Source of the DNA: Dehalococcoidia bacterium
Lineage (GTDB): Bacteria > Chloroflexota > Dehalococcoidia > Lucifugimonadales > JAGWBF01
Assembly (NCBI GenBank): GCA_965248905.1
Contig: CBDFKS010000004.1
Coordinates: 14,759-78,758, forward strand
Length of the DNA stretch: 64,000 nt
Reading direction: 5' to 3'
A program made the position numbers and the translations under genes. Shown one piece after another: positions 10,752-36,230 of this stretch. The notes beneath the pieces were generated by a model, which saw only the letters and a program-made list of their open reading frames with translations, made no database searches and was not told where the DNA came from. How positions within the stretch are numbered: the stretch's first letter is position 1; every line of letters begins with the position of its first letter.

Positions 10752-10781
10752 ATACATTTGGTCTCCACCTGAAAGCAAAAC

Positions 10782-13252: not shown

Positions 13253-13334
13253 CATCCCATTCCAATGTCATTTCACAAACCGGATCATTGGTCTTAATAT
13301 CCCAATACCTCACCAGGTAACCGAAACTCTCAAA

Positions 13335-17253: not shown

Positions 17254-17272
17254 CCTTGAGGAGTTGGTGTTT

Positions 17273-19930: not shown

Positions 19931-21838
19931 ATGACGCTGCTGGTCTCAGAAATTCATCCCTTCAACCTGTGTATCTTCTGGTTTCTTTCCTTTTTTCTGC
20001 GAATAGAAGCATATAGGATCAACCCGATGTGTCCTGGCTTACTTACCGGAAGGATAAGGGCGGTGGACATCTCCCAACATCTTTCCTGGATCAATACCCA
20101 TTGCTTTCGTTCCGGCGTAGTTCAGCAATGGGAAGAGCTCCTGACCAAGTTTCCAGAAAAGGACTGGAGTCTCCGTTATCGAGGCATGACCCTGGATTTC
20201 TCTACCAAAGCCAAACAGGAGCTAATATCATATTTCGACCAGCTTATGTTGTTACGGATGATTCAACAGCAACGAAGTCAAGGCTCTAAGATTTACATCG
20301 TGGACTCCCCTCAGTTCAGATACTTAAGAAACATGGACCGGTCGGCAGGGGTCTACAAATACCCTGCATTCCCCGTGTTTTCTACGATCAGCATGATGCT
20401 CGATCTGCTGTTTATGTATTTCTCGGTTGCTCAGCGCATGCTCTCGCTGATTGGCGCCATGGTGTATGGGATCGTGCGGCGAGATTCACGCAACCCGCTC
20501 CGAGCAAGAACCGTACCTTACATCTGGGACTCCATCAACTCAAACGAGCTCAGTGTTGATCCCCAGAGGCGCTATTTCCCCTGGATAGTGGACGGCCATC
20601 AGATTCCTATGGAGGAGGTACTGTTCATTGTCCCAAGGGGCGCGGACAAGAATGCCCGGCCGGACCTCCACAATGCCGGCTACCAGGCACATACCCTCCT
20701 GGAGCTGTATCGAATCATTCCGGTCACGGTCCTGCTGGGATGTATTGCCGCCATGATAGCGATGATAGCCAAACAGACGCTGCGATGGCATGGGAATATG
20801 GTATCGATCCAAAAGGCTGCTTACTTCGTCAGGATGATGAGATTGGCGCCGATTACTCAGAGCTTCAAACCCAACTGCTACGTCACCAACATTAGCATGA
20901 TGGGTAATGAAGAGCCGGCCACGGTGTTCTTCAACTCACTGGGCCTTCAGAGCATCATGTACAGCTACAGCTCCAATGCCTATCTGTTCGGAGACGAAAG
21001 CTGCACCTGCGATTATAGGGCCCCGACCTTCGCCCATATTCTGGCTTCTCACCTTCTGGTGTGGCATCGGGATTTCCAGGACTTTATCCAGCAACATCCT
21101 CAGGGAAACACCATTGTTGAAGCTGTTGGCCCGTTGATGTCTGGAGACGAAAGTGTTATGGAGCTGCCACCACATCAGCTTCGAACGGCTCTGGGAATAA
21201 AGTCTGCGAACTGGCAGGATGGTCTAAGCTACGTTTCGTTCTTTGACGTGGCGCCCCCTGTTGATGCTTTGAAGATAGCCAGAAATAGATATCCAGAGCC
21301 TTCCACGGAAGAATACAACGTGGCTTTCCTGGATGATATGATGCGGTTGCTGGAAGACTGCGATAATCTGGCTCTGATCTACAAACCTCAGCGAAGTCTG
21401 GTGGGGCCCAAGTTTTCTTACTCCGAAGGGTTTCGTGGTCTGTTGGACAGGCTGGAATCCAGTGGTCGCGGGTTCATTTTGGACGATACCATCAATCCCT
21501 GGGTCCCCATTGGAATCGCCGACCTGTGTATAAGCATGCCTTTTACTCCTCCTTCCCTTGCCGCGATGCACTACGGCATACCGGGTCTCTTTCACGATCC
21601 GACCGGCATGGCATTGCGCCACCGCTATCAACCCATATCCCATTTCATTACCCACGATTATGACGAGTTAAGGTCAAAGGTTAGAACGTTGCTTTCCAAT
21701 GGCTCACGTTACAATAGAGACAAAGAGATAATATGGTCAGAGGCACGTAGCTTTATCGGTGACCGCCCAGGCATAAACTCCAGCGAGAGATTCCGGAACA
21801 TGCTATGGAAGTTCCATAAAAAGGAGGACCAGACATGA
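19931..21838 (+). CDS. Large uncharacterised membrane-associated protein with a GT-B-like C-terminal module (KP variant of the HP motif)
   Basis: Hydrophobic segments are FSTISMMLDLLFMYFSVAQRMLSLIGAMVYGIV and IIPVTVLLGCIAAMIAMIA. The C-terminus LALIYKPQRS...IADLCISMPFTPPSLAAMHYGIPGLF parallels ORFs 27661 and 33446. The start is uncertain. Confidence 0.6.
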   Translation: MTLLVSEIHPFNLCIFWFLSFFLRIEAYRINPMCPGLLTGRIRAVDISQHLSWINTHCFRSGVVQQWEELLTKFPEKDWSLRYRGMTLDFSTKAKQELISYFDQLMLLRMIQQQRSQGSKIYIVDSPQFRYLRNMDRSAGVYKYPAFPVFSTISMMLDLLFMYFSVAQRMLSLIGAMVYGIVRRDSRNPLRARTVPYIWDSINSNELSVDPQRRYFPWIVDGHQIPMEEVLFIVPRGADKNARPDLHNAGYQAHTLLELYRIIPVTVLLGCIAAMIAMIAKQTLRWHGNMVSIQKAAYFVRMMRLAPITQSFKPNCYVTNISMMGNEEPATVFFNSLGLQSIMYSYSSNAYLFGDESCTCDYRAPTFAHILASHLLVWHRDFQDFIQQHPQGNTIVEAVGPLMSGDESVMELPPHQLRTALGIKSANWQDGLSYVSFFDVAPPVDALKIARNRYPEPSTEEYNVAFLDDMMRLLEDCDNLALIYKPQRSLVGPKFSYSEGFRGLLDRLESSGRGFILDDTINPWVPIGIADLCISMPFTPPSLAAMHYGIPGLFHDPTGMALRHRYQPISHFITHDYDELRSKVRTLLSNGSRYNRDKEIIWSEARSFIGDRPGINSSERFRNMLWKFHKKEDQT

Positions 21839-22545
21839 CTCAAGTGGACAAGGACATTCAAGCCGAAAACGCCGGTTGGACCTTCGAGAATATTGCCGAT
21901 AGCTTCGATGACCACGTTCGCAAATCGGTGCCTCTCTACGATGAAGGCCACGACCTGGTCTGCAAACTCAGCGATTTCTTTCTGCCCGAGGGTGGGGCTG
22001 TGGTGGAGCTGGGTACCTCGACAGGAGTCCTGGCCGGGAAGTTCCTAAAACATAACGAGAGACGTCATGATCTTAGCTACATCGGCATCGATCGCGTCGA
22101 CAGCATGTTGGAGCGGGCGAGGGAGCGATGCGTCCAGGATGGCCGGGCCCTGTTCATCAACGACGATGTAGTCACCTGCCCACTCCCCAAGAGCAACATG
22201 ATCATTTCTTACTACACCATGCAGTTCATCCACCCACGTTGGAGGCAGACCGTCTTCGACAAGATATATGAAGCCCTTGAGTGGGGTGGAGCCTTCGTTC
22301 TATTCGAAAAGGTACGGGCCCCAGATGCCAGGTTCCAGGATATAGCAGCCCAGCTCTACATCGAGTTCAAGCTAGACCAGGCCTTCGATGAGATTGAAAT
22401 CCTCGGAAAGCAACGCAGTCTCAAGGGAGTGCTAGAGCCCTTCTCAACGCAGGGTAACCTGGACTTGATGAAAAGGGCAGGATTCGTGGATATGATGACC
22501 ATTATGAAATCCATCTGCTTCGAGGGATTCCTAGCGATTAAATAA
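21835..22545 (+). CDS. CmoA-like class I SAM-dependent methyltransferase
   Basis: WTFENIADSFDDHVRKSVPLYDEGHDLV resembles the CmoA N-terminal block (F.....FD.H...SVP.Y). Motif I is VVELGTSTGVL. Confidence 0.75.
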   Translation: MTQVDKDIQAENAGWTFENIADSFDDHVRKSVPLYDEGHDLVCKLSDFFLPEGGAVVELGTSTGVLAGKFLKHNERRHDLSYIGIDRVDSMLERARERCVQDGRALFINDDVVTCPLPKSNMIISYYTMQFIHPRWRQTVFDKIYEALEWGGAFVLFEKVRAPDARFQDIAAQLYIEFKLDQAFDEIEILGKQRSLKGVLEPFSTQGNLDLMKRAGFVDMMTIMKSICFEGFLAIK

Positions 22546-22576
22546 GCTTGATTCCAAGTTTGATGAGAATACTCGA

Positions 22577-23647
22577 ATGGTGAAGGAAGACACGTCCAGG
22601 TTATCAACAAGCTCGGAAGCTGACTTATTCAACATCGTTGAGCAAGAGCTAGAGTCTTACGTAGACCTGGCGCTGTTGTCGGCCAATTCAAACGACCTGA
22701 CGAGCGTGTGGCAGAATAGGCTGAACAACGAGCCTCAACGCTTCATCAAGGACGGCTGTTCACTGAACCGGGAGGCCCTTCGTAACTTTCGCCGCATGCA
22801 GATCCTTGTCACTGACAACCCCAGAAACGATTTAAACCCGTTAAACCCTGTAAATATTTTGAGTGGCGGCCGCCGGGGCGAAAGGAAGATGCTCCAAGAG
22901 TGTCTGGCCGTGCTACAGGAACAGGGCTACGGCGAGCTGCTTCGCAAATATCCATGTCACGAGGCGGGCAATCCACACGCCTTCCGCTCCAAAGGGTTCT
23001 CATTTACACTTCGGTGGTTCAAACACATATGCTTCGTGGGCCTGCTGAACAAGGTCCTTGGAAGTCGGTTAGCGAATGAGTTTATTGGTCTGGATATAGG
23101 AAGTAGCTATGGAATATTCGCGAGCCTCGTAAAAAGGGAATATCCAAAATCCCGCCACATTCTGGTAGACTTCCCAGAGCAGCTGATCCTGGCCAAATAT
23201 TTCCTTGCCGCCTGCTTTCCCGAGGCCAGAATCGCAGGCGTCAAGGAGGTCTCCAAGCACGAATCGCTATCCCGGGACTTCATTGAGGACTACGACTTCG
23301 TTCTGGTCCCATCCTCGCTGTATGATCGCTTAACATCGGGCAGTGCCGATCTCGTAACCAACTTCGCCTCATTCGGGGAGATGACACGATATTGGTACGA
23401 GTACTACACGAAATCACCGGCATTCCAGACGGCAAGCTATCTATTCACGGCAAACAGAATTCAGTCGTACCCGACTTACGACACCGACGTGACTATACTC
23501 GACTACCCTGTTTGGGACCCTGAGAAAAGGCTTCATTTCGGTATCTCCCCAGCTTTCTCCGGCTACTATCGCTATCTCAGGCGCCACCTCTTCTTCTCCG
23601 ACAAACGGGGATACCCTCCTTATTTCGAGTATATCGGCGAACTTTAG
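22577..23647 (+). CDS. Putative sugar O-methyltransferase-like protein (class I MTase fold)
   Basis: The motif I-like segment is FIGLDIGSSYGIFASLV, followed by ILVDFPEQL. Its size and context fit the sugar O-methyltransferases of glycan clusters. Confidence 0.6.
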   Translation: MVKEDTSRLSTSSEADLFNIVEQELESYVDLALLSANSNDLTSVWQNRLNNEPQRFIKDGCSLNREALRNFRRMQILVTDNPRNDLNPLNPVNILSGGRRGERKMLQECLAVLQEQGYGELLRKYPCHEAGNPHAFRSKGFSFTLRWFKHICFVGLLNKVLGSRLANEFIGLDIGSSYGIFASLVKREYPKSRHILVDFPEQLILAKYFLAACFPEARIAGVKEVSKHESLSRDFIEDYDFVLVPSSLYDRLTSGSADLVTNFASFGEMTRYWYEYYTKSPAFQTASYLFTANRIQSYPTYDTDVTILDYPVWDPEKRLHFGISPAFSGYYRYLRRHLFFSDKRGYPPYFEYIGEL

Positions 23648-23650
23648 TTC

Positions 23651-25420
23651 ATGAGTTACCAGGTAGTTTTTCATTTTTTGCGCCAATACAGGCTCCTTTA
23701 CGGCGGGATATTGGTCGTCACACTTATCGCCTCCGCCCTGGAGAGCTTGAGCCTAGCAGCATTCTTCCCGGTGTTCACCTCCGTGCTCGATGACTCGACA
23801 GAAGGAGTGGGAGGGATATTAGGCGTCATTACCAGCATAGCGGAGAGGTTTCCCTTCGACGATCCTATAATATCGGCATCCGTTCTGCTAGTCAGCTTGT
23901 TCGTAGCTAAAACGATCTTCACAATGGCGCGCGAAGGCTTGATTGCCTATAGTAGCGGCAAAGTGTTGTACGACACCAAAAACCGAATAATGGAAAAGTA
24001 TGCCGGCTCCGACTATCAATTTTTCTTGGACAACAAACAAGGGTCCATGATTTATAGCGGCTTACAGGCTCCTCATCACATGGCCCATGTACTGCTTCGG
24101 TTTTCCCAGATGGTTGGCGAGCTGTTCCGGACAATCGCCATTATTATCGTTTTGCTATTCGTGTCACCCTTCGCGACCATAGCTCTTGCGATCCTGGCCC
24201 TGGGCTACTCCGGAGTCATCCACGATCTTTCAAAGAGGATGTCATACCGTTTCGGCCAGAGAAGGGCCAGTGCCTTGGCAGAGCAGACCGTCATCGCCAA
24301 CGAGTTCTTCACCGGAATCCGGCAGATCATCGCTTATTGCTCCGGGGGATCGTGGTTAGAGAGGTTTCGCAAAGAAAACCGCGTCTCCAGTGAAATGTAC
24401 GCGAAAGACCTGGCGTGGGTCGCCATGCCCAAAAGCATAATGGAGCTTGCTGGTGTAGCGCTTATGATGGGCCTTGTCCTGCTGTTATGGTTCGTTACGG
24501 CGGATACCTTTGCAGATGCCCTGCCCAGGCTTGGGGTCTTCGCCGTGGCCTTGATCCAGCTACTTCCTTCGATTACCAACTTCGGGCGAATGAGGATGCA
24601 GATAATGGGCGCGATGCCAGATACTGAGCTGGTGTACAATACTCTCACCGGCCCGGCACCGACCCGTGTGGACGGCAATAAGAACGTGGACTCCTTCGAG
24701 AAGGCCATCGCATTCGAAGATGTATCATTCGCATACAAAGGTAGGGATACCTTATTGGATCGAGTCGACATGGTCTTTGAAAAGGGGAAGACTACTGCCT
24801 TGGTGGGCCCTTCGGGTGCAGGCAAGACCACCATCATCAACCTCATTCTAGGGCTGTTCGAGCCTACTAACGGACGCATAACACTGGACGGTGTGTCCCT
24901 CGGGGAATACAAGCTGGCAAGCTGGCTCGGGAAAATCGGCTTCGTGAGCCAGGAGCCCTTCATATACAACTCCACTGTGGCCGCCAACATTACCTTCACC
25001 AGAAACGGCCACTCTATGGAGTCGATCATAACTGCGGCTAGCATCGCCAACGCCCACGGACTCATCTCCGATCTTCCCCAGGGATACGATACGATCGTCG
25101 GGGATAGGGGCATGAAGCTCTCAGGCGGCCAACAGCAACGCATCGCCATAGCTAGGGCAGTGCTGGACCAGCCCGAACTACTGATATTCGACGAAGCTAC
25201 AAGCTCCCTGGACACCCTCTCGGAGAAGCTGGTGCAAGAGGCCATCGAGAACGTCTCCAAAGATCGCACAGTGATCATAATCGCCCATCGGCTCTCGACG
25301 ATAAGATACGCTGACAAAATAATCGTTATGGACAGCGGTCGAGTAATCGAGGAAGGAACCCATGACGAACTGTTAAGTCAGCAGGGCCATTATTCCCGTC
25401 TGGTGGCTTCATCCACGTAA
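23651..25420 (+). CDS. ABC exporter, fused TMD-NBD (MsbA/PglK-like)
   Basis: The N-terminal half has six hydrophobic spans. Walker A is GPSGAGKTT, the signature is LSGGQQQRIAIARA and Walker B is LLIFDEATS. Confidence 0.93.
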   Translation: MSYQVVFHFLRQYRLLYGGILVVTLIASALESLSLAAFFPVFTSVLDDSTEGVGGILGVITSIAERFPFDDPIISASVLLVSLFVAKTIFTMAREGLIAYSSGKVLYDTKNRIMEKYAGSDYQFFLDNKQGSMIYSGLQAPHHMAHVLLRFSQMVGELFRTIAIIIVLLFVSPFATIALAILALGYSGVIHDLSKRMSYRFGQRRASALAEQTVIANEFFTGIRQIIAYCSGGSWLERFRKENRVSSEMYAKDLAWVAMPKSIMELAGVALMMGLVLLLWFVTADTFADALPRLGVFAVALIQLLPSITNFGRMRMQIMGAMPDTELVYNTLTGPAPTRVDGNKNVDSFEKAIAFEDVSFAYKGRDTLLDRVDMVFEKGKTTALVGPSGAGKTTIINLILGLFEPTNGRITLDGVSLGEYKLASWLGKIGFVSQEPFIYNSTVAANITFTRNGHSMESIITAASIANAHGLISDLPQGYDTIVGDRGMKLSGGQQQRIAIARAVLDQPELLIFDEATSSLDTLSEKLVQEAIENVSKDRTVIIIAHRLSTIRYADKIIVMDSGRVIEEGTHDELLSQQGHYSRLVASST

Positions 25421-25535
25421 TTAGGAGTTCTCGAAGCAGAATTGACTTTCAGGATCTAGAGCTACATCCGGTCGACAGAACACATCGAGGGCCGAGAGAA
25501 AGTTTAATATACTAATCCTAGAAAGGAGCCACAGT

Positions 25536-25805
25536 ATGATCCTTCTCAAAAGTAAACTCAATCGAGCATATCGCTTCGCACTCAGACGTACGTTCCATAA
25601 AGAGCCTCACTTACGACCTCCCCAGGAGAGGAAAGAGCATTTTCGACATTTCCTTGGAAAGATCCAAGGAAATCCCCTTGTCTGTGTCATAGGAGGCCAT
25701 GATCAAGAGCCCCTTGGTAGGGACGTGAGATATCGATACGCTAGCTTTGATATCGCAAGCCATGAGAACATCACTCCTAAAAAAGGGTGCAACCTTAGAC
25801 ACTGA
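25536..25805 (+). CDS. Small ORF (89 aa), probably the detached 5' part of the following gene
   Basis: There is a good SD (AAAGGAG 8 nt upstream). The last 33 nt before its divergent tail are repeated exactly 68 nt downstream, in frame with the ATG of ORF 25841. Confidence 0.5.
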   Translation: MILLKSKLNRAYRFALRRTFHKEPHLRPPQERKEHFRHFLGKIQGNPLVCVIGGHDQEPLGRDVRYRYASFDIASHENITPKKGCNLRH

Positions 25806-25841
25806 GTACTAGCTTTGATATCGCAAGCCATGAGAACATCA
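25741..25841 (+). repeat. Perfect 33-nt direct repeat (25741-25773 and 25809-25841), period 68 nt
   Basis: ctagctttgatatcgcaagccatgagaacatca occurs twice, separated by a 35-nt unique spacer. Confidence 0.95.
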
Positions 25842-27610
25842 TGGACATAGTAAACGAGACTAGGATTGACGCTTTCTATATCAATCGCGGCTCACCACGA
25901 GATTTGGTGAATCTCGTGAATTTCCTCGACGTCTATCATATCGATATCCCTGTCCTGATGGGAGACCAGTTTCGATGTCACAGTGTGATTGGCTACGTTC
26001 CTGTGATGCCTGGAGAGACGGTCTCTACATCAATTAGCGTACACAACTATTTTGGCAGGAATTACAGAATCAGTGATGCAATGCTGTATCAGGGGTATCT
26101 ATATCAGGGTAAAAACCTGATAGATTGCCATCAATTCCTTATGAAACCGGAGGAAACAAAGGTCATTGAGCTCCAAAAAGAACTGCACATGGAAAACGTA
26201 GGATCCGGTGTATATTACATGGAGATATTCCATCCCCAGCTCCCAACATCGAACAGTGAGTGCAGATATTATGGACTTTACCGTGATGAATCTTCGGACT
26301 CTATGGCAGGAATCCATTCTCTTCCATTGAAGGGTTGGTATAACTTCGGAAAGGAAGGCCGTACCCTTTCCAGAACGTTCTTTCCAAACCTAGACGACAT
26401 CTCAGTCAGGTATGTAATTCCGGGCTGGTCTCTGCAAGAGGAAAGGTTTGAGGTCAAGGCCCAAACCACCCTGGGCAATGAATTGCTGTTTACAGCTTCC
26501 AAGGGAAGGAGTTCTATCCAGGCGGTAGTTCCACGCCCGGATTCCCTGAAACCCCGTTCAGGACTCGAGTTCGACCGAATTGCACCAGGAATACCGATTT
26601 GGGGGGGACAGGGGTTTCAGACCTTGTGGATGGAGGGGAAAAGCCTTGCGGTTTGGCACGACGGGGCTTCGGTTAGGGATTTTCGAAAAAGGCGTAAGAC
26701 GGCCACTGTCAATGAAAAGGCCGCAAGGGTGAGCGCTGATAAAAACCAGAAGATGGCCGGTGTCTTGTATGAGGAACAACAGGAGTCGAGAGAAATCTCT
26801 GGGAACTTGATGGACCTTTTCAAAAGTAGGGTAAAATATTTTGGGACTTCGTTTCCTTTCCTGGGTCATTCGTACCCAGACCTACACCTTGTGATCGATC
26901 GCGAGCAGTGGGCCGGCAATATCCTGAACTTCAACATAGGTCTTTACACAAACAGTGGGACTCTTATAGATACTCAGCCCTGTCGCTTTAATGGATCAAT
27001 CCAAACTGTCAACCTCAATGTTCTCTTTGCCGAACAGCTTCAGGAAATCAGCCAAGGCTACTTCATGGTTACCGCCGACCCCCGTGACCAGGGTGATGAA
27101 CAGGAACCTGGCGACTTGCAATATCCAAGTGATTCTATGCTCTTCGCATTTTGGAGTGATGGGGTAAGAGTGTACGACTCGGTACACTCCCTAGACTCCT
27201 GGAATCTGGTCGCATTCGACCTGGGCGACTCTCCACGAGGGAAGTCGGAGATGGCTAAGGCGACAAAGAGAATAGTTTCCCGCACTAAAAAATTTGCACC
27301 CTTTGTGGCTAGCGATAAACAGAGATCATGGTACTGGATTTGTAATGCAGGTATGTCGGAGGAACAGATAGACACCGATGTCAAATTTAGGCTTTACGGC
27401 CCTGATGGTTTGGAGGAAATAGTTTCCTTTAACTTGCCTTCCAACTGCGCCCGAATCGTGTCAGCACATGAAATTTTGAGAGAATGCAACGCCACTTGTC
27501 CCTGGGGTACTCTCTGGGTAGAATCAAACGATTGCAATCTAGGCGCATTGTGGTTTATGGACACAGGTGATGGTAAGGGCTTTGCTACTGACCATTTCAC
27601 CGGAGGATAA
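25841..27610 (+). CDS. Orphan protein (589 aa), no family recognised; possible internal duplication
   Basis: It is a long open frame in an AT-richer segment (40-45% GC in sampled lines). There is no SD before ATG 25841. The halves are weakly similar (GVYYMEIFHP...GIHSLPLKGW versus QGYFMVTADP...SVHSLDSWN). Confidence 0.6.
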   Translation: MDIVNETRIDAFYINRGSPRDLVNLVNFLDVYHIDIPVLMGDQFRCHSVIGYVPVMPGETVSTSISVHNYFGRNYRISDAMLYQGYLYQGKNLIDCHQFLMKPEETKVIELQKELHMENVGSGVYYMEIFHPQLPTSNSECRYYGLYRDESSDSMAGIHSLPLKGWYNFGKEGRTLSRTFFPNLDDISVRYVIPGWSLQEERFEVKAQTTLGNELLFTASKGRSSIQAVVPRPDSLKPRSGLEFDRIAPGIPIWGGQGFQTLWMEGKSLAVWHDGASVRDFRKRRKTATVNEKAARVSADKNQKMAGVLYEEQQESREISGNLMDLFKSRVKYFGTSFPFLGHSYPDLHLVIDREQWAGNILNFNIGLYTNSGTLIDTQPCRFNGSIQTVNLNVLFAEQLQEISQGYFMVTADPRDQGDEQEPGDLQYPSDSMLFAFWSDGVRVYDSVHSLDSWNLVAFDLGDSPRGKSEMAKATKRIVSRTKKFAPFVASDKQRSWYWICNAGMSEEQIDTDVKFRLYGPDGLEEIVSFNLPSNCARIVSAHEILRECNATCPWGTLWVESNDCNLGALWFMDTGDGKGFATDHFTGG

Positions 27611-27660
27611 ACGAATCTTTGTAGTTAAAACGGAACTTCCCACAAACACCAGGCAACTAA

Positions 27661-28746: not shown

Positions 28747-28838
28747 AAAGGCGGGGCCTGCACCTTACAGGATGCGGCCAAAGCAGGTGTATAATCACGA
28801 TAGAGATTGGGCCACAAGGAGACGAGGGAGAGTTATCT

Positions 28839-29999
28839 ATGGCTGATCTACAACTGAAGGTGAAGAAGAGCTATGACCAGGAGTCTTTGCTCAATGACAA
28901 GAGCATGAACTGGAAAGGGTTCGACAGGGATGCTCTGATGGCCAAGATCCGAGAGGAGCAGCAAGAGGGGCCAATCACCCGTCTCCGACATCCAGAGGTC
29001 CGATACGAGACCACGGACCATTGCAACGCCGAATGCATCATGTGTCCTAGAGATGTGCACAAGTTCGGCCGACCCCACGGCATCATGAACTTGGAGAAGT
29101 ATAAAAGGAGCATCGACGAGGTGGTGGAGCTCGGATGCAAGCAAGTCGTGCTCACAGGCTTCGGAGAGCCCCTGATAGACAAGAAGCTGGAACAGAAGGT
29201 CGCGTACGCTAGGGATAAGGGCCTTCGGACGTACATCATCAGCAACGCTTCTCTCCTTACACGAAAACGGGCCGAAGGCTTAATTCAGGCTGGACTGGAT
29301 GAGTTGAGACTCAGCTATTATGGCATGAGAAAAGAAAGCTACGAAGCGGTGATGGTAGGCCTTAATTTCGAAGTAACTATGTCAAATCTGCTGGGCTTTC
29401 TGGAGCTTCGTGATGAGCTAGGCTCCAAGAAGCCTCGGCTGGAGATCAACTGGCTGGTGCTGCCGGAGAACGAAGAGGATACGGACCACTTCAGGGAGTT
29501 CTGGGAGCCCAGGGCCGACGCCATCGAAATCTGGAAGCCTCATAACTTCGGCGATGGACGCGACTATCGCCAGCGCTATGAAGAAGTGGCTATGAAGACC
29601 ACCTGCGGCCGCCCCGAGAATGGTCCTCTACAGATCCAGTGGGATGGCGAGGTGATCCCTTGCTGCTACGACTATAACAATCAGATAGTGCTGGGAAACG
29701 CGTTTGAGCAGCCCGTGCTCGAAGTCCTAAATGGGGAGAAATACCGTCTGCTACGCTTCGCCCACCGGGACAAGAAGTTCAATCTCTTTCCATATTGTGA
29801 CCAATGTGACCAGCTCCTACCCCATGCCGACGCTCTGGTCTACACCAACCGCCACAACCTGCCCAAAGAGGTGGCGGTCAAGATGTCCAACACCGATCTG
29901 TACAATCTGGTGGACGACGAGTCATTCGATCCCAAGAACTTCAATGAGAAGTACGCAGATGGACTCGTTGAAGTCGAGTACAAGCAGGCAGGTCAATAG
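28839..29999 (+). CDS. Radical SAM enzyme with a SPASM/twitch-like C-terminal Cys cluster
   Basis: The CX3CX2C motif is in TTDHCNAECIMCPRD, followed by GFGEPL. C-terminal cysteines are TTCGRP, VIPCCYDYN and PYCDQCDQ. Confidence 0.88.
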   Translation: MADLQLKVKKSYDQESLLNDKSMNWKGFDRDALMAKIREEQQEGPITRLRHPEVRYETTDHCNAECIMCPRDVHKFGRPHGIMNLEKYKRSIDEVVELGCKQVVLTGFGEPLIDKKLEQKVAYARDKGLRTYIISNASLLTRKRAEGLIQAGLDELRLSYYGMRKESYEAVMVGLNFEVTMSNLLGFLELRDELGSKKPRLEINWLVLPENEEDTDHFREFWEPRADAIEIWKPHNFGDGRDYRQRYEEVAMKTTCGRPENGPLQIQWDGEVIPCCYDYNNQIVLGNAFEQPVLEVLNGEKYRLLRFAHRDKKFNLFPYCDQCDQLLPHADALVYTNRHNLPKEVAVKMSNTDLYNLVDDESFDPKNFNEKYADGLVEVEYKQAGQ

Positions 30000-30005
30000 T
30001 CCAGT

Positions 30006-30848
30006 ATGGCATCCCCTCCTTCTAGAGGAGCGAAAAACGATCTGTACGAAGCGTGGATGCAACGGGAGCATTCTACCCAGTTCAGCGGTTGGGACAGATA
30101 CTCGACTGCAAAGCTCATCAGATTTTGCGACCAGTTCAACGAGTGCCAGCTATTCCGTGAGATAGCAAGGAACCCCACATCTCGGACTCTTTCCGATATC
30201 GGTTGCGCCACAGGGCGATTCTACAGATATTTCCGCAAAGTATGGCCCTCACTGGAATACAAAGGCTTCGATATCTCCCCGGTTGCCATCGACCATGCGA
30301 AAAGTTTGTACCACCAGGCTGATTTCAGGGTATTCGACGGCAACCTAAAGTCCGACCCTCAAATTAAGTCGGACCTGATCTTCTGCAGAGATGTGGTTTT
30401 ACACCAACCCGATCCCCATGAATTTCTTTCTGATCTCTACAATGTTACAGGTAGCCACGCCATTCTCCGTCTCAGAACGAGGGAGATGGGTGCAACGGTA
30501 TTCGACGTGTCCCAGTCCTGCCAGTATTCGACCTCGGGACGTTGGGTCCCCTACATCGTGTTCAACACCACCGAGTTGGTCGATTTAATTCGCTCTTTCA
30601 GACCGTCCCCAGCCAGGATCGTTCTAAGAAGGCATCCCGTAGTGCTTGGGGGCTACAACAGACGCTATCTGCCCAAAGAGCTCTACTATCCTGAGACGGG
30701 CACCGCTGAGACGGCGCTCCTGATCGAGAAGGGGAGCGACGACAGCGACAAAGAACCTTCTGTGACCATAGAGACCTGTCCGGAGACGCGGCAACAGCCA
30801 CGGTGGACCAGGTTGGTGAAACATATTGGGCGTCGGTGGGGCCTGTGA
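30006..30848 (+). CDS. Class I SAM-dependent methyltransferase
   Basis: Motif I is TLSDIGCATGRFYRYF, with a post-I acidic residue in KGFDIS. Confidence 0.75.
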   Translation: MASPPSRGAKNDLYEAWMQREHSTQFSGWDRYSTAKLIRFCDQFNECQLFREIARNPTSRTLSDIGCATGRFYRYFRKVWPSLEYKGFDISPVAIDHAKSLYHQADFRVFDGNLKSDPQIKSDLIFCRDVVLHQPDPHEFLSDLYNVTGSHAILRLRTREMGATVFDVSQSCQYSTSGRWVPYIVFNTTELVDLIRSFRPSPARIVLRRHPVVLGGYNRRYLPKELYYPETGTAETALLIEKGSDDSDKEPSVTIETCPETRQQPRWTRLVKHIGRRWGL

Positions 30849-30868
30849 CTGAACCGGGGACAAGGCCG

Positions 30869-31684
30869 ATGGACATCTTCGGTGACATGGAATCCTCCAA
30901 GAAATCTTCTTTCTCTCACAGGGTCTACTCGAGACTTCGCTACCGATGGCCGTTTTCGTGGGTTTGGTTCCTTCTGTACCTGGTTACAGGCAAAGTTAGG
31001 CGAGTACCTGTGAACTCCCTGACCAACCTGGGCGCCTTCTCATATTCACAGAGTGGTTGGCATCCCTTCACCGCTGCTCTGAAGCAATTGGATAGTGACC
31101 CTGATATTTGTCCCAGGGACAGCATATTAACGCAGTTTTACGACCGTTTTAACCGGAATACTCAAGATGGTTATTTGCCGGCCCATTCAGAAGATGGTTG
31201 GCAATCAACCAAAACCTGCTACCTGCCCCCATGGCACGGGGGGAAGAACGTCAATTTTGACGATACCTTTGAACATTGGACGGGGCCGAAATCGGAAGAA
31301 GCCGTAGCATTCCTGTTCAATCGTCTCAAAGCCGTGTACCACAGGCTAAGATCAGAAGGATATCGCCCTCTGTCCTATCCTGATGGATTTATCCGTGTGT
31401 GTGTTCTCGAAAGGTCCAAGGGGGACCGCAGATGCCTTGTGGTGGGTGGGCAAAATCGCGCGGCAATAATCAGTCACTTGAGACATGATGAAACGTGGGT
31501 GCGGATTCAGCAACCCAGTGCAGTCTACCCAGGCAATATGCCCAGCATGATCAAACTTAGCGAAACAGACAGGTGGGAACGAGTCGTACAGGGAGAGTTT
31601 ACCACCGAGAACGCTTCCAGATTCTTCGATGCCTACTTTAAGTACGACGGGAAGGCCCAGGCCATCGCATTGGGGCTACTGTAG
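30869..31684 (+). CDS. Hypothetical protein (possible ParB/Srx-like fold)
   Basis: The open frame has cluster-typical codon usage. CLVVGGQNRAAIISHL loosely resembles the ParB-like DGxHR motif. The start is set to ATG 30869, after the preceding stop. Confidence 0.5.
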   Translation: MDIFGDMESSKKSSFSHRVYSRLRYRWPFSWVWFLLYLVTGKVRRVPVNSLTNLGAFSYSQSGWHPFTAALKQLDSDPDICPRDSILTQFYDRFNRNTQDGYLPAHSEDGWQSTKTCYLPPWHGGKNVNFDDTFEHWTGPKSEEAVAFLFNRLKAVYHRLRSEGYRPLSYPDGFIRVCVLERSKGDRRCLVVGGQNRAAIISHLRHDETWVRIQQPSAVYPGNMPSMIKLSETDRWERVVQGEFTTENASRFFDAYFKYDGKAQAIALGLL

Positions 31685-31707
31685 CTCCGTACCGAATGCC
31701 AGGTTAG

Positions 31708-32484
31708 ATGATCACCCTAGCACGTAAATACACATCAGCCAAACGTAGGGCCTATGGCGCGTTGTCGAGAATTGCCTTCGGCATCTACAGCAAGGCCCAC
31801 GAGCTTGAACTCCGCAACTCCCATCTTTATTTGCCCTGTTACTATTTCGAGAGCGCCAGCACCCTCAGGTCCGGGTCTACGGTGGATAAGTATGGACAGA
31901 TACGGGAGACCCTTCGACAAACGTTGGGGGAAGAGCCCGAGTCAAGTGTGTTGGATTTGGGCTGTAATGAAGGCTATTTCGCCCTAAGACTGGCGTCCGA
32001 GGGGTACTGGGTCACCGGCATCGACGCAGATGCGGGCTATCTTCGAGTAGCAAAGTTCCTTCAGCAGAGGTACCTGGTAAACAGAGCCTCCTTCTATCAG
32101 CTAACGGCCAACAAGGAAGACCTTCTGAGCTTACCCACATTCGACGTAGTGATTTTCATGTCCGTATTCCAGAAATGGTGCTCTCAATACGAGTTCGGAG
32201 AAGCGTTCGATATGTTAAGGGTACTCTGGCAGAAAACAAATCGGATCATGTTTTTCGAGATGCCGGACTCACTTGAAAGTGAGGAGTTCTTCAAGGACTC
32301 CATGCCAAGCATGGGGGAAACCAAGGAGGAGTGCCGGGAGTATATCAAAAATATGCTGGAATCAATCGGCTCCTGCTCGGTAACCTGGATTGCCGACAAC
32401 CCCATGGACTATAGGCCGGAACAACGAAGCCTCTTTGCCGTCACTAGGATCTTTGAGGATCAAAAGGATGGCAACTCACCATGA
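31708..32484 (+). CDS. Class I SAM-dependent methyltransferase
   Basis: Motif I is SVLDLGCNEGYFALRLA, with an acidic residue in VTGIDAD. Confidence 0.78.
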   Translation: MITLARKYTSAKRRAYGALSRIAFGIYSKAHELELRNSHLYLPCYYFESASTLRSGSTVDKYGQIRETLRQTLGEEPESSVLDLGCNEGYFALRLASEGYWVTGIDADAGYLRVAKFLQQRYLVNRASFYQLTANKEDLLSLPTFDVVIFMSVFQKWCSQYEFGEAFDMLRVLWQKTNRIMFFEMPDSLESEEFFKDSMPSMGETKEECREYIKNMLESIGSCSVTWIADNPMDYRPEQRSLFAVTRIFEDQKDGNSP

Positions 32485-33449
32485 GCATTCTGGAAGAGCT
32501 AGACAGGGTGTTCAAGCTTGAGATAGACACACTCATGAAGCTTAGAGACAGCCTTGACGGTTCCTATACGAAGGCGACGGAGTTGCTTTTCCAGTGTTCG
32601 GGTAAAGTCGTGGTCACAGGCATGGGGAAATCGGGCCTCATCGCTCAGAAGATCTCCGCCACCATGGTGTCCACAGGAACACCTGCGGTGTTTCTTCATC
32701 CCAGCGACGGTCTGCACGGCGACGTGGGCATCATTCGAGAAGGAGACGTCGTGCTGGCCATCAGCAAATCCGGAGAAACAGAAGAGCTGCTTGGCATACT
32801 GCTATATATCAAAAAAGTCGGGATACCGGTGATCTCTATCACCGCAGACCCAGAGTCCACGCTGGCAAAAAGCTCCGACGTCGTGTTGTTCACACAGGTG
32901 AACGAAGAGGCCTGCCCTCTGAATCTGGCTCCCACGTCCAGCACCACCGCCGCACTGGTGCTGGGGGATGCCTTGGCCATGGCTCTGATGAAGATGCGGG
33001 GCTTCGAGCCAGAGCAGTTCGCCATTCTCCACCCCGGCGGCCAGTTGGGGAAAAGGCTTCTGCTCACTGTAGAGGATATCATGCGGGGCGGCGAGAGAAA
33101 CCCCGTGGTCAATATCAAGGACACCGTAAGCAACATGCTTTCAGAGATCACAAGCAATTTGAGCGGAGCAGTCTCAGTAGTGGACGATGAGGGCAAGCTC
33201 CTTGGGCTGGTGACCGACTACGACATTCGCAAGATTCTGGAGCAAGGCAAGAATATCTATACACTGAGCATTCCAGAAATCATGAACACAAATCCCACCT
33301 ATATCTGCTCGGACGAGAAGGCTGCTGTGGCCTTAGACCTCATGGAAAACCGGGAAAAGCCCTTTCTGGTGTTGCCGGTATTGGAAAGGACCAGCAGAAA
33401 AGCGGTGGGCATTATACATCTCCACGATCTGATAGCCAAAGGTCTATGA
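32481..33449 (+). CDS. kpsF: Arabinose-5-phosphate isomerase (SIS + tandem CBS), KpsF/KdsD type
   Basis: The SIS block is VVVTGMGKSGLIAQKISATMVSTGTPAVFLHPSDGLHGDVG. A C-terminal CBS pair is present (VSVVDDEGKLLGLVTDYDI, GIIHLHDL). Confidence 0.92.
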   Translation: MSILEELDRVFKLEIDTLMKLRDSLDGSYTKATELLFQCSGKVVVTGMGKSGLIAQKISATMVSTGTPAVFLHPSDGLHGDVGIIREGDVVLAISKSGETEELLGILLYIKKVGIPVISITADPESTLAKSSDVVLFTQVNEEACPLNLAPTSSTTAALVLGDALAMALMKMRGFEPEQFAILHPGGQLGKRLLLTVEDIMRGGERNPVVNIKDTVSNMLSEITSNLSGAVSVVDDEGKLLGLVTDYDIRKILEQGKNIYTLSIPEIMNTNPTYICSDEKAAVALDLMENREKPFLVLPVLERTSRKAVGIIHLHDLIAKGL

Positions 33450-35263
33450 GCAACGTCATTCTCTGCGATCGATTGAGCTCGTTGAAGACTGCCCTGAAAG
33501 GCATATCGGGCCCCTTCCGCTACATAAGTTTGATAGAGACACAGGAGAGCTTTCAGATCCGTAGCTACCTACAGCAGCACCCGGATGCTCGGGAGCTTCC
33601 ACGGGCTCAGCTATTTCGGGAGCGTAGCGACAAGTTCAGGAAAAGCTACATCGAGACGATGGGTCAAATCAATGGGCGAAACCATTCGCTGGAGTGGTGG
33701 GCCATGCCCTTCACCAACAAGAACCCGTTGGCCACCCAGCTTTGTCGCCAAACCTTCCAGTTCCTCCTGATAGTAGAGCTACTCCGCAGCAGCCAAGAGG
33801 CTCTGGTGGTTGTCACCGACGACGCTGACCTCGTTGCTCAGGTGAAAGCCTGGGGAGACACACACGGAGTGCCTGTTGTCAGCACAGTTAAAGGGCAGAA
33901 GGGTTGGAAGTCCTTTGTTCAGAGGTTCACACCGGGAAATGTGCTGTACGCCTTTGTCAGGACCCTGTGGCTGTGGCTCCAGACTCGGCGTTTACGTATC
34001 CGCAGTGAGACCGGCACTGAATACACGGTGGTGGCGAGCCTATTTCACCCCCAGTCCCTGTCTGAGCCTGGAAAATACCGCGACGTGTACTTCGGCAGAC
34101 TTGTGGATGATCTTGAGGCCCAGCAGAAAAACGCCGTCGTGTTTGGACTACTCCAAGAGCCATGGCGAGGCCAGGTTTCCAAGCTGAAGGCGTTGAATGG
34201 CAGAGTCAAGGTTATCCCGGCTGAGGCTTACCTCTCCCTTTCGGACCTGATGTTGTGTGGCCTCAAGTCCCTGAAGGCCTATTTCAGCCGCTCACGAATT
34301 TCTGGCCCCGCAGAGTGTGACGGCATCGACATAGGAATCCTATTAAAAGGAGCCATCCGACAGGCCCGCCGCTCCGGTAATTTTCTCCGAGCACTGAGAG
34401 TATATTACTGCGCCAGACGACTGGCTCAGGAGGTACATGTGGAGCGGTGCATGTATCCCTATGAAAACAGAGCGTGGGAAAGGATGCTGATCCGCGGAAT
34501 CCGAGATGCCTCACCCAAAACCCGCATAGTAGGATACCAGCACGCCTCGGTGACCCTCGGCCACACCAATTTTATACTCGGCCAAGAAGAGCCCCAGATC
34601 GTTCCTTTACCCGATGCCATCGTTACCACAGGACCCTTGGTCAAGGAGTGGCTCGAAATGGAGGGCAACTATCCTCCTGGAATGTTGAAGACCGGCTGTG
34701 CGCTACGCCAATCTTCACCAAACGGCACAGTACAAGCCAGAAACAAGTCAGATCGAATCACCAACGTTCTGGTAGTCCTGGCCACCAGCCTAGACGAATA
34801 TGTAAACACATTGGTGTTCCTCGAAAAGGCGTTTTCAGGATCAACTGGGTACGAGGTTCGCATTCGCCCTCACCCTACCATTCCCCTGGAGTCAGCGGTT
34901 AAGATTGCGCCGTTGAGCCGCACTGAGTTCTATTCGCCAAGCACCGGCCCCTTGATGGACGCTCTCCAATGGGCCGATGTGGTCCTATACGCATCCTCCA
35001 CAGTTGGGATGGAGGCAGTCTCATTGGGAATCCCAGCTATTTACCTTGACCTGGGAAACTTCCTCGATACCGACCCCATGTTTGGCTGGAGTGAGTTCAA
35101 GTGGTCGGTTAGAGAGCCCGCAGAGCTAATTGATGCTATGCGAAAGATCGAAGCCGTACCTCCCAGCACCTTTAGTGAGCTACAGCTAAAAAGCCGGGAG
35201 TATGTATCCACTTATCTGAGTCCGGCGACGGCCGCCAGCGTGCACACTTTTCTCGAAGCCTAA
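33446..35263 (+). CDS. Large uncharacterised GT-B-like protein with an HP motif (candidate CMP-ulosonate transferase / surface carbohydrate biosynthesis protein)
   Basis: YEVRIRPHPTIPLESA is followed about 30 aa later by WADVVLYASSTVGMEAVSLGIPAIYLD. It is translationally coupled to kpsF (ATGA overlap). Confidence 0.65.
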   Translation: MSNVILCDRLSSLKTALKGISGPFRYISLIETQESFQIRSYLQQHPDARELPRAQLFRERSDKFRKSYIETMGQINGRNHSLEWWAMPFTNKNPLATQLCRQTFQFLLIVELLRSSQEALVVVTDDADLVAQVKAWGDTHGVPVVSTVKGQKGWKSFVQRFTPGNVLYAFVRTLWLWLQTRRLRIRSETGTEYTVVASLFHPQSLSEPGKYRDVYFGRLVDDLEAQQKNAVVFGLLQEPWRGQVSKLKALNGRVKVIPAEAYLSLSDLMLCGLKSLKAYFSRSRISGPAECDGIDIGILLKGAIRQARRSGNFLRALRVYYCARRLAQEVHVERCMYPYENRAWERMLIRGIRDASPKTRIVGYQHASVTLGHTNFILGQEEPQIVPLPDAIVTTGPLVKEWLEMEGNYPPGMLKTGCALRQSSPNGTVQARNKSDRITNVLVVLATSLDEYVNTLVFLEKAFSGSTGYEVRIRPHPTIPLESAVKIAPLSRTEFYSPSTGPLMDALQWADVVLYASSTVGMEAVSLGIPAIYLDLGNFLDTDPMFGWSEFKWSVREPAELIDAMRKIEAVPPSTFSELQLKSREYVSTYLSPATAASVHTFLEA

Positions 35264-36217: not shown

Positions 36218-36230
36218 AAGCCTCGATATC

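Follow-up and report, generated by a model that had tools for sequence, protein, structure and literature searches.

Characterised CMP-ulosonate transferases are spread over several glycosyltransferase families, including the sialyltransferases of GT38, GT52, and GT80, the alpha-Kdo transferase WaaA (GT30), and the beta-Kdo and Pse transferases WbbB (GT99), KpsC and KpsS (GT107), KpsS1 (GT118), and KrkA (GT140). They have GT-B-derived folds, their genes lie beside CMP-sugar synthesis genes, and beta-Kdo transferases, like the bacterial sialyltransferases, carry a His-Pro (HP) motif. In the bacterial sialyltransferases this conserved motif is reported to be important for CMP-Neu5Ac binding (PMC5420450). 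In the retaining beta-Kdo enzymes the GT-B fold is heavily remodelled, with a helical sub-domain added and Asp as the nucleophile, and families new to the CMP-ulosonate transferase class are still being established from structure where similarity in sequence is negligible (PMC12887879).

Tested relatives of the three protein families described below are limited to the CDP-polyol phosphotransferases TagB/TagF/TarL and to genetically implicated enzymes of Tannerella. In TarL, H433 contacts the alpha-phosphate and has been suggested as the proton donor for the leaving CMP (PMC10901376). The Tannerella forsythia transferases for Pse/Leg derivatives (Tanf_01245, TFUB4_00887, and BFO_1060; NF046086) are TagB-like proteins of the GT-B type that carry an HP motif as well as an acidic motif of the D/E-D/E-G type. 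Their genes adjoin nonulosonate genes, and knock-outs lose the terminal nonulosonate, the evidence reported there being genetic only, with no in vitro activity or structure (PMC5420450). SpsB, a TagB-domain protein of B. subtilis with HP motifs, was found to be dispensable for legionaminic acid transfer (PMC7439481), which counts against a CMP-ulosonate role for such proteins. The "surface carbohydrate biosynthesis proteins" TIGR04326 (LIC13510-type) and TIGR04396, as well as TIGR04417/PF27878, owe their names solely to their location in surface-glycan clusters; as no reaction is assigned to any of them, belonging to one says nothing about function.

The stretch of DNA analysed here (the window, 64,000 nucleotides of a Dehalococcoidia bacterium) contains a surface-glycan island at about 8.5–49.3 kb, and all genes positioned below lie on its forward strand. 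The CMP-Kdo synthesis genes for KdsB, KdsA, and KdsC (10011–12223; NCBIfam matches above cutoff) are followed by a variant nonulosonate cassette (12278–19881) encoding PseB, an unknown protein, a GFO/IDH oxidoreductase, a CTP_transf_3::Aminotran_3 fusion, NeuB/PseI, a formyltransferase, and PseG. Directly downstream lies P1 (19931–21838; 635 aa), a PFTS-motif polysaccharide biosynthesis protein. Its stop is overlapped by 4 bp by a CmoA-like methyltransferase gene, which precedes a gene for a NanM-type sugar O-methyltransferase (both within 21835–23647). P2 (27661–28746; 361 aa) is a minimal GT-B protein of the TagB/TagF (Glyphos_transf) superfamily, and is followed by a radical-SAM/SPASM enzyme gene (28839–29999). 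The start of P3 (33446–35263; 605 aa) overlaps by 4 bp the stop of kpsF, encoding a KpsF/KdsD arabinose-5-phosphate isomerase (32481–33449; TIGR00393, 280 bits vs. cutoff 204), and genes for an RmlD-like reductase and a GT2 glycosyltransferase lie 3' of it (35273–37151). The three reading frames, which an earlier note had picked out from the sequence, are real, contain the strings quoted there, and are full length compared to their homologues. The coupling of one protein to kpsF claimed in that note was likewise found, for P3, and the two genes are also neighbours in relatives from Dehalococcoidia and Nitrospira (conserved in loci L001, L004, L005, L006, L009, and L017). So were both routes to the two CMP-sugars that it ascribed to the island: KdsB/KdsA/KdsC/KpsF, and the CTP_transf_3 fusion with NeuB and PseG. 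The only cytidylyltransferases of the island are of the KdsB (CMP-Kdo) and CTP_transf_3 fusion (CMP-nonulosonate) types. A glycerophosphodiester phosphodiesterase gene is located just outside the island.

P2 and P3 share 28% identity over 130 aa (BLASTP, E=1e-5), spanning the His-Pro and the SS-G-EA-LG-PA stretch, and P1 has no BLASTP match to either of them. Family profiles of the C-terminal modules score 39.7 for P1–P2 (E=1e-5), 38.1 for P2–P3 (E=2e-5), and 31.5 for P1–P3 (E=2e-4), with reversed-alignment decoys at 13.3 or below, which bears out the collinear C-terminal module that had been proposed for all three. The module spans residues ~467–590 in P1 (21329–21700; profile alignments to P2 and P3), ~194–290 in P2 (28240–28530; conservation and TarL alignment), and ~443–545 in P3 (34772–35080; aligned to P2 by BLASTP and hhalign). 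Full-length profiles score 39.6 for P1–P2 and 33.1 for P1–P3, while controls with reversed decoys and with 10 island families unrelated to them put the upper limit of noise at about 24. The similarity of P1 to P2/P3 covers both Rossmann halves (264 columns), above every control. The module is the nucleotide-binding half of the GT-B fold, the C-terminal Rossmann domain common to P1, P2, and P3. It is not exclusive to them, as P2 (44.6) and P3 (48.4) match the PseG encoded in the island, itself a GT-B hydrolase, about as well as they match each other.

P2 passes Pfam PF04464 (31 bits vs. cutoff 22.1), the match being confined to the C-terminal portion of that model (positions 223–356 of 367). 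Its sequence supports a GT-B fold, the best solved relatives in PDB profile searches being TarL (E=3.7e-7), TagF (1.4e-4), Cps3D, and UDP-sugar 2-epimerases (7e-4). The module reads F-R214-A-H216-P-R218-D ... D255-L-V-V-T-Q-F-S262-S263-A-G-V-E267-A ... G-V-P274-A-L-F, in which H216, R218, D255, T259–S263, E267, and P274 are invariant (38/38). Aligned to TarL, H216 corresponds to H433, S262/S263 to S474/S475, and E267 to E479. No invariant His is present between residues 18 and 216, where an invariant E109-D110-F-P-G113 stretch (E-D-F-P-G-N) is found instead; P2 thus lacks the N-subdomain His that acts as catalytic base in TagF-type enzymes, and the stretch in its place recalls the D/E-D/E-G motif of sialyltransferases.

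P3 matches TIGR04326 (E=1e-21) at 76.6 bits vs. a cutoff of 250, and is therefore placed in a sister clade of this family and not among its members; the model is matched below cutoff by 35/35 P3 family members. This was one of the surface carbohydrate models that the earlier note had singled out for comparison. TIGR04396 is weakly matched by P2 and P3 relatives. The P3 module reads R474-P-H476-P ... A-D511-V-V-L-Y-A-S517-S518-T-V-G-M-E523-A ... G-I-P530-A-I-Y-L-D, with H476 and E523 conserved in 35/35 members, R474 and P477 in 33/35, and S518 in 31/35, so that the HP His is invariant in two of the three proteins. The AlphaFold2 model of P3 (pLDDT 91.4, pTM 0.90) predicts a GT-B fold: Foldseek gave 289 PDB matches at E≤1e-3, and the best 50 of these are all GT-B fold proteins. 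The earlier note had set a fold other than GT-B against its own reading, and GT-B was obtained for P3 by this model and for P2 by sequence. Among the 50 matches listed (best 50 of 289) are the TagF-like Cps3D and, near the top, NeuC and 2-epimerases; no sialyltransferase, WbbB, KpsC, or KrkA occurs among them, and the only Kdo transferase is WaaA at rank 35. In contrast to the modified fold of the beta-Kdo enzymes, the best structural matches of P3, among those listed, are canonical GT-B enzymes. Pfam models of characterised sialyl-/Kdo-transferase families, a search proposed in the earlier note, gave no match at E≤1 for P1, P2, or P3. Its view that the proteins had no recognisable family and were possibly a new one is superseded by TIGR04417/PF27878 for P1, PF04464 for P2, and the TIGR04326 sister clade for P3.

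For the three proteins together, the chances appear about even that they are distantly related GT-B-type nucleotide-dependent transferases of the TagB/TagF-like group serving one surface-glycan island, P2 and P3 with CMP-ulosonate donors and P1 as a nonulosonate candidate. P2 and P3 have the GT-B architecture of TagB/TagF/TarL and the same succession of R/K-x-H-P His, Ser-Ser loop, and Glu, and CMP is the expected leaving group in both cases. It is possible, if unlikely, that P2 and/or P3 are themselves TagF-type phosphotransferases, which would move a phospho-linked group (polyol phosphate, sugar phosphate, or other) from a CDP donor and produce a teichoic-acid-like phosphodiester polymer or decoration, not an ulosonate glycoside. 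The PF04464 match and the solved relatives of P2, including the capsule polymerase Cps3D, agree with such an activity; P2 relatives also match TarB (38/38) and TarF (27/38), but all TarB/TarF/TarL scores of the family are far under cutoff, the fit to PF04464 is partial, and the TagF-base site has no invariant His. PF04464 is not matched at all by P1 or P3. P3 has a second near-invariant His, H366 (33/35), and keeping it together with H476 is a TagF-like hallmark (PMC10901376) that speaks against CMP-ulosonate donors; its about 190 extra N-terminal residues are likewise reminiscent of TagF-like polymerases. Other CDP donors, e.g., CDP-threonine, have been proposed for TagF-like enzymes (PMC10714395), and the phosphodiesterase gene next to the island would fit a phosphodiester product. 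However, CDP-polyol synthesis genes (TagD/TarI/TarJ-type) were not identified near P1–P3 among the island genes scanned, and since both cytidylyltransferases are of CMP-ulosonate types, P2 and P3 most likely transfer CMP-ulosonic acids.

The gene neighbourhoods fit CMP-ulosonate donors for P1, P2, and P3, but do not prove them. P2 loci contain the radical-SAM gene in 10/10 cases and P3 in 9/10. Around P3 the steadiest partner is also the radical-SAM gene (25/36 loci) and not kpsF, the other neighbours being GT2 (22/36), NeuB (10/36), KpsF (only 9/36, which counts against the CMP-ulosonate reading), and RmlD-like genes (7/36). This radical-SAM partner, of the sugar type, is 62–87% identical across phyla, and its nearest solved relatives are BtrN (8e-12), BlsE (2.6e-6), and DesII (8.6e-6). 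Its constant association with P2 would also suit a nucleotide-sugar-processing GT-B enzyme (PseG/NeuC-like hydrolase or WecB-like epimerase) acting with the radical-SAM enzyme on an unusual sugar precursor, and P2, possibly also P3, might be of this kind rather than polymer-building transferases, which we regard as improbable. P2 and P3 resemble PseG and the UDP-sugar 2-epimerases WecB/NeuC, of the same GT-B fold, about as much as each other: the P2 profile aligns to PseG, a GT28-like UDP-sugar hydrolase, over 290 columns, nearly full length (E=3e-5), P2 matches Epimerase_2 and solved 2-epimerases (E about 7e-4 to 6e-3), NeuC and 2-epimerases rank high for P3, and a PseG-like gene adjoins P3 in loci without P2 (L011, L013, and L023). 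Against this, PF04464 beats Epimerase_2 on P2 by 15 bits, PseG has no His-Pro at the position where it is invariant in P2, P3, and TagF-like enzymes, and the island has a bona fide PseG as well as a WecB-type epimerase besides P2 and P3. In addition, the nonulosonate transferase family of BFO_1060 (NF046086) is matched by 20/38 P2 relatives, by P2 itself (E=1.6e-3), and by one P3 relative (3.8e-8), though this similarity is weak and sub-cutoff.

P1 matches TIGR04417 (E=4e-46, 158 bits vs. cutoff 100), which is PF27878 (PFTS_polysacc), and has 1,132 homologues at E≤1e-3. Its module reads K485-P-Q487-R488 ... D531 ... P537-F-T-P540-P ... G-I-P-G-L-F-H-D556-P, and lacks the catalytic-type His. 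In the alignment, K485 falls on the Arg that stands two positions ahead of the His (R214 in P2, R474 in P3), and Q487 takes the His position. The earlier note had read this as KP in place of HP, perhaps an inactive enzyme, but K485 is conserved in 83/83 relatives and is a family hallmark, not decay. R488 (76/83), D531 and D556 (78/83 each), and G400-x-x-M403-x-G405 are conserved as well, which in a family of >1,000 members argues for a conserved active site. Two hallmark residues of the family are replaced in this P1, which has Gln at 487 (Lys in 69/83) and Pro at 540 (Ser in 77/83). It appears to be GT-B-like and remotely related to P2 and P3; that it is instead a membrane-associated accessory protein in the assembly of the nonulosonate glycan (polymerase co-factor, scaffold, or other enzyme), with its GT-B likeness an evolutionary remnant, is a doubtful alternative, as the missing His, the Q487 and P540 deviations, the strongly hydrophobic segment 255–284, the poor AlphaFold2 model (pLDDT 58; no Foldseek match at E≤1e-3), and the lack of a match in the Pfam library searched or of a solved relative by sequence search are set against profile similarity above every control, the conserved residues, and best, non-significant structural matches that are all GT-B enzymes.

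In the mechanism proposed, the most likely role of P2 and P3 would be to add ulosonic acids from CMP donors to the glycan as it grows, with release of CMP. P3 may handle Kdo or a radical-SAM-modified Kdo-type sugar, because of the kpsF overlap and because of locus L040, where KdsB-KdsA-KdsC-rSAM-KpsF is followed by a second rSAM, a GFO_IDH gene, and then a P3-family gene. As P2 is always accompanied by the radical-SAM gene, it would belong to this sub-pathway too. P1, placed after the nonulosonate cassette and before two methyltransferases, is the best candidate nonulosonate transferase, in which Lys/Arg (K485, R488) would stand in place of the His and residues 255–284 would probably form a membrane anchor. 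NeuB is found near P1 homologues in 10/12 loci, the cassette also precedes them in L002, L040, L041, and L042, and the P1-CmoA-NanM trio is kept in L002, L024, L038, and L042. Judged by their sequences, P1–P3 fall in, or for P3 next to, already catalogued families. The Tannerella enzymes are a functional precedent for CMP-nonulosonate transfer by such proteins, and P1–P3 are reasonable, if unproven, candidates for attaching the unusual acidic sugars of the island, with donors suggested by motif logic and gene neighbourhood.

Three forward-strand open reading frames, P1 (19931–21838, 635 aa), P2 (27661–28746, 361 aa) and P3 (33446–35263, 605 aa), are full length by comparison with their homologues, and both they and the peptides quoted for them in the earlier note are present in the window sequence. 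They belong to a single surface-glycan island of about 8.5–49.3 kb (8567–49286) that is flanked by ordinary metabolic genes and has Dehalococcoidia metagenome-assembled genomes as nearest relatives. The island starts with a MarR-EPS regulator and an RfaH-like protein, followed by KdsB, KdsA and KdsC (10011–12223), PseB, an unknown protein, a GFO/IDH oxidoreductase, a CTP_transf_3 cytidylyltransferase (residues 6–180) fused to a class-III aminotransferase (15199–17253), NeuB/PseI, a formyltransferase (18332–18856), PseG and P1. A CmoA-like methyltransferase, a NanM-type sugar O-methyltransferase, an MsbA/PglK-like ABC transporter (23651–25420) and an orphan 589-aa protein (25841–27610) separate P1 from P2, and a radical-SAM/SPASM enzyme (28839–29999), methyltransferases and KpsF (32481–33449) separate P2 from P3. 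P3 is followed by an RmlD-like reductase, a GT2, a methyltransferase, two GT4s, a 346-aa unknown protein, a GNAT protein, a polysaccharide deacetylase on the opposite strand and, at the island end, a fused dehydrogenase/GFO-IDH oxidoreductase, a LegB/GalE-like epimerase/dehydratase, a UDP-sugar dehydrogenase and a WecB-type epimerase. No priming phosphoglycosyltransferase, Wzx/Wzy or O-antigen ligase is recognisable in 8567–49286, and the ABC transporter is the only assembly- or export-type gene to set against this missing set.

The three proteins had been described as having no recognisable family and possibly forming a new one. This description has to be given up, since by profile comparison P1, P2 and P3 fall in or beside catalogued families. 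P1 scores 158 bits against NCBIfam TIGR04417 (cutoff 100) and is by this measure a bona fide member; TIGR04417 corresponds to PF27878 (PFTS_polysacc) in current Pfam, which is also annotated on P1 homologues, and no paper came up for the PFTS motif or the TIGRFAM accessions in literature searches. P2 matches PF04464 (Glyphos_transf, the TagB/TagF family) over model positions 223–356 of 367 with 31 bits, above the Pfam gathering threshold of 22.1; neither P1 nor P3 matches PF04464. P3 has no Pfam family and reaches 76.6 bits against TIGR04326 (cutoff 250). Because all 35 P3 relatives match this model (best E 9e-30) and all stay well below the cutoff, P3 represents a sister clade of TIGR04326. 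Scores against NF046086, the BFO_1060 family of nonulosonate transferases (cutoff 200), are below threshold for both P2 (17.7 bits) and P3 (10.5 bits).

A GT-B fold is predicted for P2 from its profile matches to TarL (3.7e-7), TagF (1.4e-4) and UDP-sugar 2-epimerases, the TagF-like capsule polymerase Cps3D being a further solved structure matched. For P3, the fold comparison proposed in the earlier note came out in favour of GT-B. Its AlphaFold2 model (pLDDT 91.4, pTM 0.90) has 289 Foldseek matches in the PDB at E ≤ 1e-3, and the 50 matches listed are GT-B fold proteins, including GT1 and GT4 enzymes, MurG, NeuC and 2-epimerases, with Cps3D at rank 20 and WaaA at rank 35. The model thus shows P3 as a canonical GT-B protein that is extended at its N-terminus by about 190 residues.

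TagF-like enzymes use two essential histidines: one in the N-subdomain acts as base (TagF H444, TarL H300), and one in the C-subdomain (TagF H584, TarL H433) is in contact with the alpha-phosphate and has been proposed as proton donor to CMP as it leaves (PMC10901376). Counted through the alignment, P2 H216 corresponds to TarL H433, S262/S263 to S474/S475 and E267 to E479. This leaving-group-type His is invariant in the P2 family (38/38) and aligns with P3 H476, which is equally invariant (35/35), as is P3 E523; P1 has Q487 at the position. No invariant N-subdomain base His occurs between residues 18 and 216 among the 38 P2 relatives, where the invariant residues are E91, E109, D110, G113 and N114, four of them in the motif E109-D110-F-P-G113-N114. 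In P3, the near-invariant H366 (33/35) might be equivalent to the TagF base. Both P2 and P3 carry the HP motif, and the E-D-F-P-G of P2 is only an approximate D/E-D/E-G. P2 and P3 are very probably nucleotide-dependent GT-B enzymes.

One use of such an active site would be TagF-type phosphotransfer from a CDP donor by P2 and/or P3. The PF04464 match of P2 and the two histidines of P3 agree with it, and CD0244, proposed as a CDP-threonine transferase, offers a precedent (PMC10714395). Against it, P2 has no base His and no CDP-polyol genes (TagD/TarI/TarJ-type) were identified among the window genes scanned, in which the cytidylyltransferases found are KdsB and CTP_transf_3. The only cytidine-activated donors of the island would then be CMP-Kdo and a CMP-nonulosonate. 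Because of this donor set, and because P2 combines the missing base His with an acidic motif, transfer of CMP-ulosonic acids is favoured.

The common C-terminal pattern of the three proteins, first noticed by eye, proves to exceed chance. Pairwise BLASTP connects P2 with P3 (E = 1e-5, 28% identity over 130 aa, spanning the His-Pro and the SS-G-EA-LG-PA stretch) and gives no match of P1 to either. Alignments of 83 P1-family sequences (an exhaustive search found 1,132 relatives), 38 of P2 and 35 of P3 were compared profile to profile. Reversed alignments served as controls, as did ten island families unrelated to the three and compiled from the fetched loci; aligning the P1 profile with individual island proteins by hhalign was powerless, a reversed decoy (23.6) scoring above P3 (22.9). 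All three pairs exceed all controls: full-length scores are 39.6 for P1–P2, 33.1 for P1–P3 and 38.9–45 for P2–P3, and the noise ceiling of controls and decoys is about 24. The C-terminal module alone gives 39.7 (E = 1e-5) for P1–P2, 38.1 (E = 2e-5) for P2–P3 and 31.5 (E = 2e-4) for P1–P3, with reversed decoys at 13.3 or less. Homology of P1 and P3 over the N-terminal ~190 residues was considered and dropped, the profile score of 17.6 being within noise; the two have parallel predicted secondary structures there and an F-S/T-x-K near residue 90.

The island PseG profile scores 44.6 with P2 and 48.4 with P3. The module is the general GT-B nucleotide-binding domain, and P2 and P3 are no more similar to one another than to PseG. 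These equally strong matches, together with the obligate pairing of P2 with a radical-SAM gene, would also suit a nucleotide-sugar-processing role like that of PseG, NeuC or WecB. Such a role is opposed by the His-Pro of P2 and P3, which PseG does not have at the equivalent position, and by the genuine PseG and WecB genes already in the island.

P1 differs from the other two around the His position. The hallmarks of its family are K485 (83/83), R488, D531, the PFTS motif and D556, together with a G-P-L-M-x-G-D stretch in register with the G-x-P-R-x-D position of the TagF family. K485 had been read as the first residue of a KP replacing HP. The register was wrong: K485 corresponds to a conserved Arg located two positions ahead of the His (P2 R214, P3 R474), the His position is taken by Q487 and the Pro position by R488. 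Residue 487 (21389–21391) is Gln here and Lys in 69/83 relatives, and the PFTS motif reads P-F-T-P, with Pro at residue 540 (21548–21550) in place of the Ser found in 77/83; both changes are common to some of the closest relatives. The accompanying suggestion that P1 is an inactivated HP enzyme was rejected, with K485 kept in 83/83 members of a large family under conservation. The P1 AlphaFold2 model is poor (pLDDT 58) because only 10 homologues went in; with this model Foldseek gives no match at E ≤ 1e-3, and the top matches (best E 0.017, not significant) are all GT-B proteins. Among PDB sequences, profile searches with P1 and P3 gave no meaningful match. That P1 is a non-catalytic or otherwise different membrane protein is a further alternative, to be weighed between the strongly hydrophobic residues 255–284 and the family-wide conservation of K485. 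A metagenome scan for P1 relatives yielded only three loci; the 83-sequence alignment is too diverse for deriving search patterns.

None of the three proteins matches, at E ≤ 1, the Pfam models of characterised sialyl- and Kdo-transferases (among them Capsule_synth, Glyco_transf_52 and Glycos_transf_N), behind which stand the sialyltransferases of GT38/GT52/GT80 and the Kdo transferases of GT30/GT99/GT107. The 35 P3 relatives gave no match to the same models at this threshold either, and one of the 38 P2 relatives reached E = 0.12 with a Kdo-transferase model, which is noise. In the retaining beta-Kdo/Pse enzymes of GT99, GT107, GT118 and GT140, the GT-B fold is heavily remodelled (PMC12887879), whereas the best matches of P3 are canonical GT-B enzymes. 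The HP motif is conserved in bacterial sialyltransferases, and it is carried by Tannerella TagB-like enzymes with a genetic link to Pse/Leg transfer (PMC5420450). SpsB of B. subtilis, a TagB-domain protein with HP motifs, is dispensable for legionaminic acid transfer (PMC7439481), an analogy that advises caution on all readings of P1, P2 and P3. The original nomination of the three as candidate CMP-ulosonate transferases was sensible and now stands on firmer ground. TagB-like nonulosonate transferases are, as an idea, already published.

Gene neighbourhoods were compared in 42 related loci, using tblastn with the window proteins and precomputed annotations, and partners were counted within 10 kb. 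P1 has NeuB nearby in 10/12 loci. Its relatives are directly preceded by the variant nonulosonate cassette also present in the window (GFO_IDH, a CTP_transf_3::Aminotran_3 fusion, NeuB, an acyl-/formyltransferase and a PseG-like gene), and CmoA-like and NanM-like methyltransferases often follow. P2 is accompanied by the radical-SAM gene in 10/10 loci and by P3 in nine, the tenth locus ending at kpsF. The partners of P3 are radical-SAM (25/36), GT2 (22/36), GT4 (13/36), NeuB (10/36), KpsF and P2 (9/36 each) and P1 (7/36). The radical-SAM protein is 62–87% identical between loci vs 24–68% for P2/P3; all of its closest relatives with a solved structure are sugar-modifying enzymes (BtrN dehydrogenase, 8e-12; BlsE decarboxylase; DesII). 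Exact-sequence look-ups named none of these proteins, the one label being a generic radical-SAM entry on a cluster-mate of the radical-SAM enzyme. Literature searches joining radical-SAM and nonulosonic acid had no mention of nonulosonic acids among the top results.

The P2–radical-SAM/SPASM–P3 cassette (27661–35263 in the window; related loci L001, L005, L006, L027, L030–L033, L035, L040 and L042) is conserved from Dehalococcoidia to Nitrospira, Elusimicrobia and Proteobacteria, with Betaproteobacteria, Methylophaga and Mariprofundaceae represented; in several Proteobacteria no other gene lies between the three. Locus L040 has the order KdsB-KdsA-KdsC-rSAM-KpsF-rSAM-GFO-P3-like, which sets the radical-SAM gene (rSAM) between KdsC and KpsF, inside a Kdo operon; because of this placement the enzyme may remodel Kdo or a precursor. 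The RmlD-like reductase after P3 could pair with it.

The island holds three remote GT-B relatives, two of which carry the His that assists the departure of CMP in relatives that have been studied. The proposal is that they transfer CMP-ulosonic acids: P3 would act on Kdo or a radical-SAM-modified derivative, P2 in the same sub-pathway, and P1 on the nonulosonate with Lys/Arg in place of His. Taken as a whole, this proposal has about an even chance of being right, and the donors are much less certain than the GT-B assignment of P2 and P3. A wider and rather doubtful extension takes P2, rSAM, P3 and GT2, in some lineages with KpsF and Kds, as a widespread cassette for making and installing a radical-SAM-modified ulosonic acid. 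A BtrN/BlsE/DesII-like enzyme would then remodel a Kdo- or nonulosonate-type sugar into an undescribed sugar, P3 and P2 would install it, and P1, through the PFTS family with its >1,000 members, would add a third family of ulosonate transferases, one that lacks the His.

Several observations concern the sugar genes themselves. The fusion of the CTP_transf_3 cytidylyltransferase, which is of CMP-ulosonate type, to a class-III aminotransferase (15199–17253) stands beside GFO/IDH and NeuB in every P1 context examined, and together they look like a non-canonical nonulosonate pathway. In the 84%-identical relative L042 (1158–4257), PseB is separated from the gene after it by a DegT (PseC-type) aminotransferase; tblastn found none anywhere in the window (compare 12278–14180). 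The open reading frame listed at 13173–14180 probably starts at ~13335, since its homologue has 281 aa. The window formyltransferase (18332–18856) replaces a GNAT acetyltransferase of L042 (8449–8877), which suggests an N-formyl instead of an N-acetyl nonulosonate and a small cassette swap between near-identical islands. For the orphan frame (25841–27610), Pfam, NCBIfam and PDB all gave no match, and none of the fetched loci has a homologue. With a 420-bp gap it fills 25421–27660, where the ABC transporter and P2 genes adjoin in L042, and because of this adjacency and its low GC (0.46–0.48 vs ~0.52 for the island) the region looks like an insertion. An IS element (HTH_Tnp_1 and rve integrase) lies between the CmoA-like and NanM-like genes of L042 (12753–13927) and is absent from the window.

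Few known transferases attach bacterial nonulosonic acids or Kdo outside LPS, and structure alone still serves as the basis for founding new families, as with GT118 (2024) and GT140 (2026). As it stands, the present result is a tidy reclassification with a ranked candidate set and not a discovery. The three families are large, span many phyla and lie reliably beside CMP-ulosonate genes. Should even one prove to use CMP-Kdo or a CMP-nonulosonate as donor, this would annotate hundreds to thousands of genes and add tools for the enzymatic synthesis of glycosides of these sugars. A complete Kdo pathway (KdsA, KdsB, KdsC and KpsF; 10011–12223 and 32481–33449) is present in this probable Dehalococcoidia genome. 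Since this lineage is not known to make lipopolysaccharide, the Kdo of the island would serve another surface glycan. Were the cassette proposal true, new glycosyltransferase families for CMP-ulosonates would be founded, and probable Dehalococcoidia would make Kdo-containing surface glycans.
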